Shown: positions 57,582-61,187 of the stretch, piece by piece | How the letters are laid out: each line of letters opens with the position of its first letter | Position numbering within the stretch: the stretch's first letter is position 1 | Origin: Shigella phage JK32 | Sequence record: MK962753.1 | Length of the DNA stretch: 64,000 nt | Strand: one strand, 5' to 3' | Position numbers and translations under genes: made by a program | Notes under the pieces: generated by a model | Databases searched by the model: none | The model's input: only the letters and a program-made list of their open reading frames with translations | What the model was told of the DNA's origin: nothing

Positions 57582-58079
57582 ATGTCAGATCTAGGCTTAG
57601 ATATGAAGCAATTAATGAATTTCGAAAGTCTAGGTCTTCCGGGGTCATTCGACGCGGAAGAAGATCGAGTGAGCTATGATCCGCTCGTCTTGACTCCGGT
57701 CGAAAGTCATCCAGAAGATCGTAATATTGACTTACAACGAGATTATAATGAGGCACGTCAGAATATTCATTTTCAGAATCAGATGATGATGGACGCAGCA
57801 AAGATTTATCTTGAACTTGCAAAAAATAGTGAGTCTCCGAGGTTCCTACAAGCATTTAACGGCCTCATGCAGCAAATGAGCAACAACAATAAAGAATTAC
57901 TTAATATTCATAAGGATATGAAGAAAATAACCGAGCAAGCTGGAGAGAAAAAGAAAGATAATACTCCAGCCGCACCAGTTAATATCCAGAATGCGACCGT
58001 CTTTATGGGTTCTCCTAGTGATTTAATGGATGAAATCGAAGACGAGGAAGCGCGAGTTATTGAAGGTGAGACAGTATGA
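57582..58079 (+). CDS. 16: Terminase small subunit gp16
   Basis: 165 aa vs T4 gp16 164 aa; overlaps start of gene 17. Confidence 0.85.
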
Positions 58080-59827
58080 GCGTGATTGAAGGGATTAACG
58101 CAATGGCGACGGATGAACACCCGCTACATTTAGCACATCCGTCTACACTAGAAACTAAAATTGATTCAAATGGTATTGAATGGATTTTATCAAAGCATGA
58201 TGATAAATGGTATCCTAAAAAGTTTTCTGACTATCTGAAATTAAACAGACCGCAGAAAATAAGGATGCAAAGCACTGATCCAACAAATTATAAGTTCTTT
58301 AAAGATAGTGACAATATTCGCACGCGGTATATGCGATTAAAGAACTTGCGAAGGGCGAATATTAAAACTCAGTATACCCCTGAAATGATCGCAGAGTGGA
58401 AACGATGCCGTAAAGATATTGTGTATTTTGCCGAAACCTATTGCGCAATTACACACATCGACTACGGTACAATCAAAGTACAATTGCGTGATTATCAGAA
58501 AGATATGCTTAAGATCATGCATGAAAACCGCATGAGCGCACATAAACTCAGTCGTCAGCTAGGGAAAACTACCGCTGTAGCAATATTCCTTGCTCACTAC
58601 GTTTGTTTTAATAAAGACAAAGCGGTAGGTATACTGGCACACAAAGGGTCAATGGCTGTTGAAGTTCTAGAACGTACCAAACAAGCAATTGAACTATTAC
58701 CAGACTTCTTACAGCCTGGTATTGTTGAATGGAACAAGAAATCAATTGTTCTTGAAAACGGATCGAGTATTGGCGCTTATGCGTCGTCTCCCGATGCCGT
58801 GCGTGGTAACTCTTTTTCGTTTATCTACATTGACGAATGCGTTAGCGGCTTGACCAAAGTTACACTACGTGATAAACTAACAGGTGAGATTAAAGAATAC
58901 ACTATGTTAGAGGTTAAGATGATGGCTATTCAGCAAAAGTTGAATAAAATTAAAGAGTTATTACTGCCGCACGCAAAAAATCCAAACTTGACTCGCGGTT
59001 GGGTTCCTGGCGTAACTATGGATATGTTGGAAGAATACAAAGAGTTTTTCGACACACATTTTCATAAAACCGAATCCATGAGAGAGTTTATCGCATGTGT
59101 AACAAATGATATTCTGGATCGTCCCGTTTGCTCTACGAAAGGATGTGGTTGTCGTGTGGAATTAAGCAAGAATGGTCCATACTATAAGGATAAATGCCAT
59201 AACTACTGCACAGAAAAATTGCCTGGGCGCTTAGGGAAAATATCATCAAAAATGGTTATCTTCCGTCGTTTTGAGTGTCCAGAATGCGGGATGTATGCTG
59301 TTAAAAATGAGGGTTATCTTTGCCGTAAATGTGGTTACGCAAAACAAGGCGAGGCAATGAAACGTCTATACGTCGAAAACGGCGATGAAATGCGCAAAAA
59401 GTGCAACGGTAAGAAAACACCAGAACAAAGGGCTAAACAGTCCGAGCAAGTTAAACAGCGTATTCTGAATGGTGAATTTACTCCTAAGACGACTAACCGT
59501 CTTAATCACAATCGCATTAAGTATGATGGTCATAACTTTCGTAGCTCATGGGAACTATCTTTCTATAAAGATATGAAAGCTAAAGGCGTTAATATTGAAT
59601 ATGAAACGCTTCGTGTTACATACAAATTTAAAGGAAAGAATCACGTTTATATTACGGACTTCGTAGATCACGATAATAAGATCGTTTATGAAGTTAAGCC
59701 TAAGCGACTTGTTGAAGACCCAAAAACAATGGCGAAAGAACACGCCGCTATAGAATGGTGTAAAGAAAACGGATATACTTTCGAATATATTCACGAGGAT
59801 TATATTAATGAACTTTTGGAATCTTGA
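58076..59827 (+). CDS. 17: Terminase large subunit N-terminal ATPase fragment fused to intein block A, zinc ribbons and a gp4-like nuclease domain
   Basis: Residues 1-254 collinear with recalled T4 gp17 (Walker [18 protein letters not shown]); then [10 protein letters not shown] (Hint block A), CxxC pairs, RSSWEL...EVKP domain. Confidence 0.85.
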
Positions 59828-60125
59828 CGGATTCGAAGTTCTCACCGAAAACGGTTTTAAAGATTTTGATGGCATAAAAGAAACATTTGGTATGATCTGG
59901 AAACTAACATTTAGTGATGGATCATACCTTGAATGCTCAGAAAGCCATAAATTAAAATCAAGTGACGGCTTTTTCATTGAAGCCGATGATATAGAGGCTG
60001 GATTCGTTACGTCTTCCGGCCTTACTGTCATTAGTAAAGATTATGTTGGTGAAGACTTTTTATACGATCTAACTAATGTTGCCGATGGCAACCATTACAC
60101 TACAAACAATGTAGAATCTCACAAT
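58838..60125 (+). mobile_element. Intein in terL, split across two reading frames, with embedded nuclease
   Basis: Starts at Cys codon 58838-58840 after extein ...FIYIDE; ends at HN (60120-60125) before extein CAFIQNW; length 1288 nt is not a multiple of 3. Confidence 0.75.
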
Positions 60126-61187
60126 TGCGCGTTTATTCAAAACTGGACCGATTGTTTCCTTGCAATCCAACCAGTAATTTCTTCCGGTCGTGAATCTAAA
60201 ATGATCATGACCACGACTCCTAACGGGCTTAATCACTTTTATGATATCTGGCAATCGGCTATTGATGGTAAAAGCGGTTATGTACCTTATGAGGCGGTTT
60301 GGCATTCTGTTAAAGAACGTCTTTACAATAAAGCTGATATATTCGATGATGGTTATGAGTGGTCATCTCAGGCGATCGCCGGATCTAGTCTTGAGCAATT
60401 CTTACAGGAACATAACGCTGAATTTTTCGGTAGTTCCGGTACTCTGATCAGGGCAACCACACTATCAAGATTATCCTTTATTGACGTTGTTAATGATAAC
60501 GGGTTTTATCAGTTTGAGCAACCGAAAGAAGGTAGAAAATATGTTGCTACTCTCGATTGTTCAGAAGGCCGAGGACAAGACTATCACGCAATGCAAATCA
60601 TTGATATTACTGAATTTCCTTATAAACAGGTTGCGGTATATCACAATAACACGGCATCACATTTGATATTACCAGATATCGTCTTTAAATATCTCATGAT
60701 GTATAATGAATGTCCGGTGTATATTGAGCTAAATAGTACGGGTGTATCTATTGCTAAATCGTTGGCTATGGATCTGGAATATGACAATATTATTTGTGAT
60801 TCCTATGTAGATCTAGGCATGAAACAGACTAAACGGTCTAAGGCAATTGGATGTTCTGCCCTAAAAGACTTAATAGAAAAAGACAAACTGATCATTAATC
60901 ACAAGGGAACTATTCAGGAGTTGCGCACATTCTCTGAAAAGGGATTAAGCTGGGCGGCAGAAGAAGGTTTTCATGATGATTTGGTCATGAGTCTGGTAAT
61001 ATTTGGTTGGTTGTCAACACAAGAAAAATTCGCTGAATATGCAGGGAAAGACGAAATGCGCATTGCATCCGAAATATTCCGCAAGGAATTAGATGAAATG
61101 GGCGATGAATATGCTCCGGTGGTAATATATGACGGTGCAAATGGCATCGAAGAATATCAACCACGCGAAGGTCTTTCAATGGTATAA
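59808..61187 (+). CDS. 17: Intein C-terminal part (Hint blocks B, F, G) fused to terminase large subunit C-terminal nuclease domain
   Basis: Own GAGGA Shine-Dalgarno and ATG; LECSESHKL (block B), [22 protein letters not shown] (F/G), then [21 protein letters not shown] collinear with T4 gp17 to the end. Confidence 0.85.

Follow-up and report, generated by a model that had tools for sequence, protein, structure and literature searches.

A split terminase gene and its candidate intein

The window analysed here, a 64,000-nucleotide stretch of DNA from Shigella phage JK32 (record MK962753.1), contains the gene for the terminase large subunit, terL, of this Krischvirus (RB49-like) phage. The gene consists of two overlapping open reading frames (ORFs) on the same strand, which span positions 58076-61187, and the terminase portions of these ORFs are separated by a candidate split intein joined to a predicted nuclease. 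ORF1 (58076-59827, + strand) encodes 583 amino acids (protein QEG05460.1), and ORF2 (59808-61187, +), which lies in the +1 frame relative to ORF1 and overlaps it by 20 nt, encodes 459 amino acids (protein QEG05461.1).

ORF1 begins with TerL residues 1-254, the N-extein (58076-58837, +), which represents the N-terminal half of the packaging ATPase, matches positions 5-106 of Pfam Terminase_6N (E = 1.4e-25) and carries the Walker A motif SRQLGKT (58550-58570) and the Walker B motif with its catalytic Glu, FIYIDE (58820-58837). The C-extein in ORF2 (60126-61187, +) comprises Cys+1, the second half of the ATPase including TTTPNG, the RNase H-like nuclease domain and the stop codon, and matches positions 107-213 of Terminase_6N as well as Terminase_6C (E = 1.3e-22). 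Since the Terminase_6N profile is divided between the two ORFs at positions 106 and 107, with Terminase_6C following in ORF2, the terminase is severed at a single exact point. Both exteins are co-linear with the TerL of the intein-free genome G5211: ORF1 follows the host protein to ...FSFIYIDE, ORF2 picks up at CAFIQNW, and the insertion falls precisely between E254 and C. The insert therefore occupies 58838-60125 (1288 bp) at FIYIDE|CAF, directly after the Walker B Asp and the catalytic Glu. The predicted spliced product of 607 amino acids is equal in length to intein-free TerL, which is encoded by an uninterrupted terL of 1824 bp in most Krischviruses. Complete carrier genomes have one terL locus each and are those of plaque-forming isolates, so the split gene must give a working terminase.

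The insert starts with the core of the N-terminal intein fragment, IntN (Cys255-Lys281; 58838-58918, +), which comprises block A, whose Cys1 is the nucleophile, followed by a beta-hairpin and the first part of a helix. The Cys255 codon (CVSGL) starts at 58838, and this residue is kept in all relatives having an intein at the Walker B site. The core aligns with the IntN of relatives and with the N-terminal part of contiguous mini-inteins, is 100% identical in four other carriers, and was modelled by AlphaFold2 (AF2) with strands at residues 7-11 and 18-22 and a helix from residue 23; intein-derived sequence extends past it to about 58960 (AIQQKL). The rest of the Hint fold is predicted in the C-terminal fragment, IntC (106 amino acids; 59808-60125, +), whose motifs are the block B SESH (ORF2 residues 44-47, with His47), LYDLTNV of block F (85-91) and VESHN of block G (102-106), followed by Cys+1 (residue 107, at 60126). 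When the concatenated IntN and IntC were used as query, positions 31-134 (IntC residues 5-106) matched CatC, the C-part of a consensus atypical split intein (PDB 6DSL_B), with an E value of 6.9e-13, and weaker matches were obtained to DnaE inteins and to 7QIL (E = 0.0056). In an alignment with contiguous mini-inteins of the same site (Vibrio phage VmeM-32, Desulfovibrio phage SRB7757, Krischvirus protein P0033) and with Npu DnaE, conservation extends to C1, the block B His, block F, HN and C+1. The block B His is invariant among nine aligned sequences and lines up with the TKDH of Npu DnaE, and S104, H105, N106 and C107 (VESHN|C) are likewise invariant.

Four features of a class 1 intein were found, namely Cys1, a block B (T/S)xxH, a block G His-Asn followed by Cys+1, and a removal that restores the host protein. 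Features of an atypical split were found too: the break comes after block A, blocks B, F and G all lie in the 106-residue C-fragment, and this fragment is homologous to CatC. One feature of known cases, a short IntN of about 15-40 amino acids ended by a stop, was not found, as ORF1 continues for 329 residues beyond the extein, compared with 25-43 in relatives. The element is most likely a functional, mobile, naturally split class 1 intein broken at an atypical position after block A.

An earlier reading of this stretch made from its letters (the sequence-only reading) had placed the insertion at the T4 gp17 site IYIDE|CAF and the break between blocks A and B. The first placement is borne out by the exteins of Tequatrovirus HY03, which read FAMIYIDE|CAFIPNF, and the second by the family alignment, in which the first beta-hairpin and the helix lie before the break, as does ...TMLEVK.... 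The comparison with intein-free terL that it had suggested is the one made above with G5211, with its exact insertion and 607-residue product. Rechecking of the coordinates upheld the ORF limits, the +1 frame, the two CxxC motifs (CPEC and CRKC) and the separate GAGGA of ORF2. All its statements about the sequence stood, with the small correction that IntC has 106 residues and the intein ends at 60125.

The two TerL pieces could also be held together by the intein halves without formation of a peptide bond, as a terminase encoded by a gene in pieces. We regard this as improbable. It has a precedent in the Aeh1 NrdA, which is split by mobE and reported to assemble into a working enzyme without splicing (PMC3045599, and Friedrich et al. 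2007 as cited elsewhere). On the other hand, C1, the block B His, HN and C+1 are conserved down to 35% identity and in contiguous forms, and the ratio of nonsynonymous to synonymous substitution rates (dN/dS) of IntC is 0.017. The break adjoins the Walker B catalytic Glu, and about 130 extra residues would have to be accommodated in the core of the ATPase. The close homologues Cat, AceL-TerL and GOS-TerL splice in vitro, and the 6DSL match points the same way.

Upstream of terL lies the small-subunit gene terS (57582-58079), and the tail sheath gene starts at 61222, which corresponds to the T4-type 16-17-18 gene order.

The frame break and the spread of the fused layout

At the ORF1/ORF2 junction (59795-59827, +), a GAGGA Shine-Dalgarno (SD) sequence (59795-59799) stands 8 nt before the ATG of ORF2 (59808), and the 20-nt dual-coding overlap ends with the TGA of ORF1 (59825-59827). 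The GAGGA falls within the codons for H-E-D of the nuclease, a conserved (T/H)-E-D, and GAGGA and ATG are kept in six lineages with overlaps of 13 or 20 nt which differ in sequence. Because this SD sequence and start codon sit inside the last nuclease codons, ORF2 translation is probably coupled to that of ORF1; their location agrees with the suggestion, made in 2009, that the downstream ORF takes its initiator from the endonuclease 3' end.

The sequence-only reading had raised the case of a single-base error, the break being then an artefact of sequencing or assembly in one contiguous intein ORF with an inserted nuclease. The two ORFs do differ by a single +1 step over the 20-nt overlap, and the TB34 genome shows an obvious 1-nt indel elsewhere in terL. 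However, the junction sequence is identical in five other aligned Krischvirus genomes (G2494, kaaroe, TB34, SAP and phiS), which come from independent laboratories in Germany, Denmark, China and elsewhere and have the same two coding sequences (CDS) annotated, and a sixth carrier, GoldenSnicker, was found in protein-level searches. At 90% identity, the ORF1 protein clusters into a group of 23 members, mostly of 581-584 amino acids, from independent assemblies, and the same break recurs at 39-57% identity. Relatives with three ORFs would require two errors each, and the SD sequence and ATG of ORF2 are conserved. An error was rejected in view of the identical junctions and the many independent ORF1 assemblies, and its probability is negligible.

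A programmed +1 ribosomal frameshift in the overlap would give a single-chain precursor splicing in cis. The end of ORF1, ...UCU UGA C, resembles the prfB-type shift site CUU UGA C, and a +1 shift would read ...ES-DGFEVLT. This explanation is nevertheless highly improbable: there is neither a slippery Leu codon nor a correctly spaced upstream SD sequence, the length (13 or 20 nt) and sequence of the overlap vary among lineages while ATG and GAGGA persist, no significant RNA structure was found at the overlap (z = -1.65), and one shift cannot rescue the relatives with three ORFs.

The two-ORF layout recurs in a T4-like contig of metagenomic origin (P0001, L017; 57% identity) and in Shewanella phage Thanatos-2 (39%). 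Three ORFs are found in Yersinia phages phiR1-RT and TG1, Escherichia phage HY03, Salmonella phage SG1 and Pseudomonas phage PspYZU05, whose genes are annotated merely as 'endonuclease' and 'terminase large subunit'. These five phages share with JK32 the insertion site, an IntC 58-64% and a nuclease core 47-50% identical, and the GAGGA and ATG inside the 3' end of the nuclease gene. They differ in that their IntN stops after 41-43 residues and that the nuclease is a separate ORF of 199 amino acids, in another frame and without the N-terminal domain of about 105 residues.

A survey of IMG/VR with an IntC profile found 164 relatives, of which 80 loci were retrieved. Their usual pattern is an IntN of 25-43 residues, a stop and a free-standing nuclease, with spacers of -62 to +34 nt between IntN and nuclease and 3' overlaps of -3 to 25 nt. 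The free-standing nuclease is TnsA-like in 26 loci (27 including the reference phiR1-RT) and of another type or absent elsewhere, and other nuclease types such as GIY-YIG occupy the slot between IntN and IntC in related loci. One IMG/VR locus (L068) has a contiguous mini-intein, which with VmeM-32 and SRB7757 makes three contiguous forms in all. A TnsA-like nuclease in frame with IntN was found in 0 of the 80 loci. At L027 (2454-5443), IntN runs in frame into a GIY-YIG nuclease, which overlaps the IntC ORF by 40 nt; the intein is a related atypical split intein located seven residues upstream (..IRGKS|CVVG.., ..SHN|CNLIYLDE), and the locus is an independent case of IntN joined in frame to a nuclease. 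Among 1.84 billion representative proteins, a scan recovered the fused clusters P0041/42, P0043, P0044, P0045 and P0049 along with free-standing long-nuclease versions (P0050-52, P0066). Judging from these sequences, the fusion is rare yet recurrent, and old enough for some lineages to lack the internal start codon.

The nuclease appendage, its selection and its allelic context

The sequence-only reading had described the nuclease as fused in frame to IntN rather than free-standing and as bearing a PD-(D/E)xK-like domain. The appendage indeed adds 302 in-frame residues to IntN, with no in-frame stop between 58838 and 59825, and after the IntN core ORF1 runs in order through a helical NPNLTRG region, a Cys cluster, a zinc ribbon and the PD-(D/E)xK domain. 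The helical N-terminal domain (58919-59275, +), which includes the NPNLTRG motif and the Cys cluster (CSTKGCGC, 59129-59152; CHNYC, 59195-59209), is presumed to bind DNA. It is conserved in Thanatos-2 (33%) and P0001 (51%) and also occurs in the free-standing long nucleases P0050-52 and P0066. AF2 modelled ORF1 residues about 285-344 (58928-59107; model residues 31-90) with a predicted local distance difference test score (pLDDT) of 80-94, and the score was low over the Cys cluster. The zinc ribbon CPEC...CRKC (59276-59332, +; CPEC at 59276-59287, CRKC at 59321-59332) gave weak matches to Zn_ribbon_3 and TFS, and its columns are kept in short and fused nucleases.

The PD-(D/E)xK domain (59396-59824, +) is of the TnsA_N / T7 endonuclease I type, with the motifs RSSWE, ITDF and YEVKP. 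Its catalytic set, E493 (59552-59554), D528 (59657-59659), and E539 and K541 (59690-59698), is invariant in 12 homologues. The domain matched Pfam TnsA_N (PF08722; E = 3.1e-8, 34.5 bits against a cut-off of 26.5), fell just under the cut-off for Phage_endo_I (PF05367; E = 9e-7, 29.0 bits against 29.1), and matched the T7 endonuclease I structure 1M0D (E = 6.5e-4), with the N-terminal region of which the catalytic residues align. An AF2 model built from a 12-sequence alignment reached a pLDDT above 90, and Foldseek related it with a probability of 1.00 to TnsA (1T0F), 1F1Z and I-Bth0305I (3R3P), Vsr being also among the best matches. PHROGs gave only 'endonuclease' labels, with matches including 'Holliday junction resolvase' families. 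The PD-(D/E)xK assignment is thus supported by Pfam, by the T7 endonuclease I structure and by Foldseek. By sequence and model, the appendage is a classical E-D-ExK restriction-endonuclease-like nuclease with an intact catalytic set. The EDxHD type found in fractured genes was also considered for this nuclease and rejected, as the His of TDFVDHD is not conserved.

A possible separate start of the nuclease lies at 58877-58924 (+), where a hairpin (58877-58910) is followed by an SD-like GAGGT (58910-58914) and an in-frame ATG ATG (58919-58924). The hairpin has a z-score of -2.86, with 2 of 200 shuffled sequences folding equally well, and by our own reading the substitutions in phiS preserve its pairing. 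GAGGT and ATG-ATG are restricted to the JK32 lineage, no Met being present at this boundary in P0001 or Thanatos-2. The nuclease of the JK32 lineage might therefore also be translated separately from this site. The 58877-58924 hairpin is reminiscent of translation-attenuating hairpins reported upstream of phage homing endonuclease genes. No T4 late promoter was found within the terL element, the sole nearby consensus being TATAAATA at 61183-61190, which overlaps the terL stop and lies shortly before gene 18; neither sigma-70-like sites nor terminators are in excess.

Compared with phiS, the most divergent carrier, dN/dS is 0.05 in IntN, 0.03 and 0.08 in the nuclease (the former in its N-terminal region) and 0.017 in IntC. 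The overall range of 0.02-0.08 in the insert is comparable to that of the exteins, and all parts of the insert are under purifying selection. In view of the CatC and TnsA_N scores and of this dN/dS range, homology is far beyond chance. Compared with G2494 and kaaroe, synonymous divergence (dS) is 0-0.04 in the insert, against 0.12 in the N-extein and 0.39-0.41 in the C-extein. As its dS is far below that of the exteins, the element is younger than its flanks, in agreement with horizontal spread. The junction Asp codon is GAC in all six carriers and GAT in the three non-carriers examined, a sample too small to interpret.

Past about 60519, roughly 400 bp into the C-extein (60519-61187), JK32 differs by 10-30% from every Krischvirus of the collection, carrier or not; upstream of 60519 identity is 97-100%, and a second stretch of 10-30% divergence is found at 61450-61690 inside gene 18. 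Position 60519 is a mosaic boundary unrelated to intein status.

Krischvirus terL alleles include three kinds: intein-free, with a contiguous mini-intein, and split. The mini-intein kind is represented by P0032, P0033 and P0040 (Logan assemblies), in which TerL has a contiguous 149-amino acid mini-intein at the Walker B site and no nuclease. The P0033-type protein is identical to that of JK32 at 104/106 positions in the IntC part and merely 19/27 in the IntN part, and its C-extein is the closest to that of JK32 (345/353 identical, against 336-337 for other Krischviruses). Because a near-identical IntC occurs in a nuclease-free mini-intein allele, the nuclease was recently gained or lost within one lineage. 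A segment K-x-x-A-I-x-Q-K following the IntN core is common to fused ORFs, stop-terminated IntN tails and mini-intein loops, and is also found at the N-terminus of the free-standing nuclease in the P0044/P0066 pair.

The nuclease could serve the phage instead of, or in addition to, homing, by resolving branched DNA during packaging in the manner of T7 endonuclease I or by degrading competitor DNA, and be brought to the packaging machinery through its fusion to the terminase fragment. Its closest solved sequence relative, T7 endonuclease I, is a junction resolvase, the PHROG matches include Holliday junction resolvases, and in P0001 and Thanatos-2 the nuclease could be made only as part of the TerL precursor. 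Most Krischviruses are nevertheless viable without it, and a closely related allele has the mini-intein but no nuclease; its homologues are free-standing endonuclease genes of the usual phage kind, whose DNA-binding N-termini vary, and nuclease types are exchanged in the IntN-IntC slot, for instance for GIY-YIG, as expected of selfish homing genes. We therefore consider a role in the service of the phage unlikely.

Proposed trans-splicing and homing, and other inteins of TerL

Taken together, the sequence data make it likely that the element is a split intein acting by trans-splicing and homing, with the nuclease as an in-frame C-terminal extension of its N-fragment. A late terS-terL transcript would yield two precursors, TerL(1-254)-IntN-nuclease (583 amino acids) and IntC-TerL(255-607) (459 amino acids). 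IntN, through its beta-hairpin and helix, would dock on IntC and complete the Hint fold, in which Cys1, the block B His, the block G His-Asn and Cys+1 would perform trans-splicing to give a 607-residue TerL with a continuous Walker B region. Splicing would also free IntN-nuclease and IntC as a complex of two chains. During mixed infection the PD-(D/E)xK nuclease would then cut a terL allele lacking it, either intein-free or with a contiguous mini-intein, and repair would copy the element in.

Several points weigh against this mechanism. We infer splicing, translational coupling, homing and the nuclease target, and no splicing or DNA-cleavage experiment on JK32 or related cultured phages was found in the searchable literature. 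We know of no test of trans-splicing by an IntN bearing a 302-residue C-terminal appendage. Profile searches of both ORFs, which the sequence-only reading had proposed as a check, returned nuclease families, but neither ORF matched an intein or Hint model in Pfam (E <= 1) or NCBIfam (E <= 5), and the single-sequence AF2 model of IntC was unusable (pLDDT 37). As the profile models are silent and the IntC model is poor, the Hint assignment relies on sequence homology and motif conservation. Finally, no co-conversion tract could be demonstrated, and no conclusion is drawn on this point because all Krischviruses, intein carriers or not, share 97-100% identity in the exteins within about 350 bp of the junction.

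For homing, indirect support is given by the presence/absence polymorphism of the element and by its dS far below that of the flanks. Support for trans-splicing and homing also comes by analogy, from the match of the layout to the fractured-gene model of Dassa, London, Stoddard, Schueler-Furman and Pietrokovski (2009, PMC2677866). This paper, which confirms the background on fractured terminase genes invoked in the sequence-only reading, describes a gp17-like terminase whose fracture lies 'at an unusual point' and whose C-part has 122 residues, and overlaps of 6-69 bp between the endonuclease 3' end and the IntC ORF. Like JK32, its GOS 'Terminase' locus has a gp17-type host and, on one strand, the order N-part with IntN, endonuclease, IntC with C-part; an unusual split in which IntN keeps no motif but N1 and IntC is long; and an endonuclease 3' end which overlaps the IntC start and supplies its initiator. 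The fractured-gene loci differ in having an IntN stop, a non-coding spacer of 27-51 nt and a free-standing GIY-YIG or Vsr-like (EDxHD) gene, whereas JK32 has no stop or spacer, a nuclease of the TnsA / T7 endonuclease I type, and belongs to the complete genome of a cultured phage. By the same analogy, the JK32 arrangement would correspond to a half-completed step IIIa (or IIa) of the gene-breaking model.

Fractured terminase loci are the source of the AceL-TerL, GOS-TerL and Cat inteins, which are studied as short isolated IntN peptides for protein semisynthesis; the JK32 N-fragment has 302 more residues. All three (Cat being PDB 6DSL) are, like JK32, split after about 25-30 residues, with an IntC of about 105 amino acids containing blocks B, F, G and Cys+1. 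Canonical bifunctional inteins such as PI-SceI also combine a Hint fold with a nuclease on a surface loop, and the excised IntN-nuclease/IntC complex would resemble one. JK32 differs from them by its two chains, by a nuclease between blocks A and B instead of B and F, and by its PD-(D/E)xK type instead of LAGLIDADG or HNH; a contiguous form is at odds with the +1 frame break at 59808-59827, which is conserved in all carriers. The JK32 nuclease has the restriction-endonuclease-like fold of T7 endonuclease I, the TnsA N-terminal domain and I-Bth0305I, and the E...D...ExK set of endonuclease I and TnsA, from all of which it differs by its added zinc ribbon and N-terminal domains.

The in-frame fusion could be an old functional state rather than the accident of a lost stop, the free-standing nuclease genes having been carved from it. 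We put this forward only tentatively and hold it to be less probable than not. The N-termini of free-standing nucleases and the stop-terminated IntN tails align with the loop helix of contiguous mini-inteins. If the fusion is old, the nuclease would be made within the TerL N-precursor, then released joined to IntN and clamped to IntC as a natural bifunctional intein of two chains; this precursor would be its sole route in Thanatos-2 and P0001, since these have no Met at the boundary. An old fusion would represent the reverse of the usual gene-breaking order, or else the half-completed step IIIa of the 2009 model. As a corollary, the nuclease may target the mini-intein allele of its closest relative (P0033), as a parasite of a parasite.

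The core phenomenon was already published in 2009-2015. What is new, as far as the searchable literature shows, is the in-frame IntN-nuclease fusion, the TnsA/endonuclease-I type in this role, and the presence of multiple allelic states in cultured coliphages, whose records give the pieces no other label than terminase, hypothetical protein or endonuclease. Our literature search, which was incomplete, so that an earlier description is possible, returned nothing relevant on this intein in Krischvirus, phiR1-RT or Straboviridae terminases. Atypically split inteins are prized in protein semisynthesis, and what is understood of their role in nature was deduced up to now largely from pieces of metagenomes. 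In the present case such an element occupies an essential gene of coliphages growing on E. coli K-12, with natural sister alleles that are intein-free, have a mini-intein, or are split with a nuclease. Ordinary phage genetics can therefore address whether trans-splicing is needed or rate-limiting in packaging, whether a TnsA/endonuclease-I nuclease performs homing, which allele is cut, and how intein and nuclease merge or separate. The half-fused layout is a state implied but undocumented by the 2009 gene-breaking model, and it shows that a natural IntN fragment can bear a large cargo at its C-terminus.

The ATPase of TerL is a hot spot for inteins. A second, unrelated intein is found at the Walker A motif of Krischvirus TerL (SRQLGK|ALDV...PTHN|TTA) in phages AV108 (L005, 495-3311), FL15 (L006), MIZ4 and MIZ5 and in proteins P0028 and P0033. 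It has 331 amino acids, starts with Ala, contains LAGLIDADG motifs, and matches the class-3-type DnaB inteins 6RIX and 6BS8 (E = 1e-17 to 1e-18), with a block B H-x-W, a block F Cys and a block G T-H-N. Because of its resemblance to DnaB inteins, one record mislabels TerL as 'replicative DNA helicase DnaB'. The Walker A and split inteins are combined in P0028 and P0041. In Campylobacter phage CP21 (L016, 130-4416), Walker A bears a mini-intein, and Walker B is preceded by a split intein with a T5orf172/GIY-YIG-like gene and followed by a contiguous mini-intein, an array that is partly unannotated. In phage CPX (L013, 2998-4326), IntC and the TerL C-part follow a neck gene and the N-part lies elsewhere in the genome, and Vibrio phage VmeM-32 (L014, 1102-3216) has a Walker A IntC at the annotated start together with its contiguous Walker B mini-intein. 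In TB34 (L003), a single extra T at the position matching 61171 extends the annotated CDS to the start of the sheath gene, and is probably a sequencing error.

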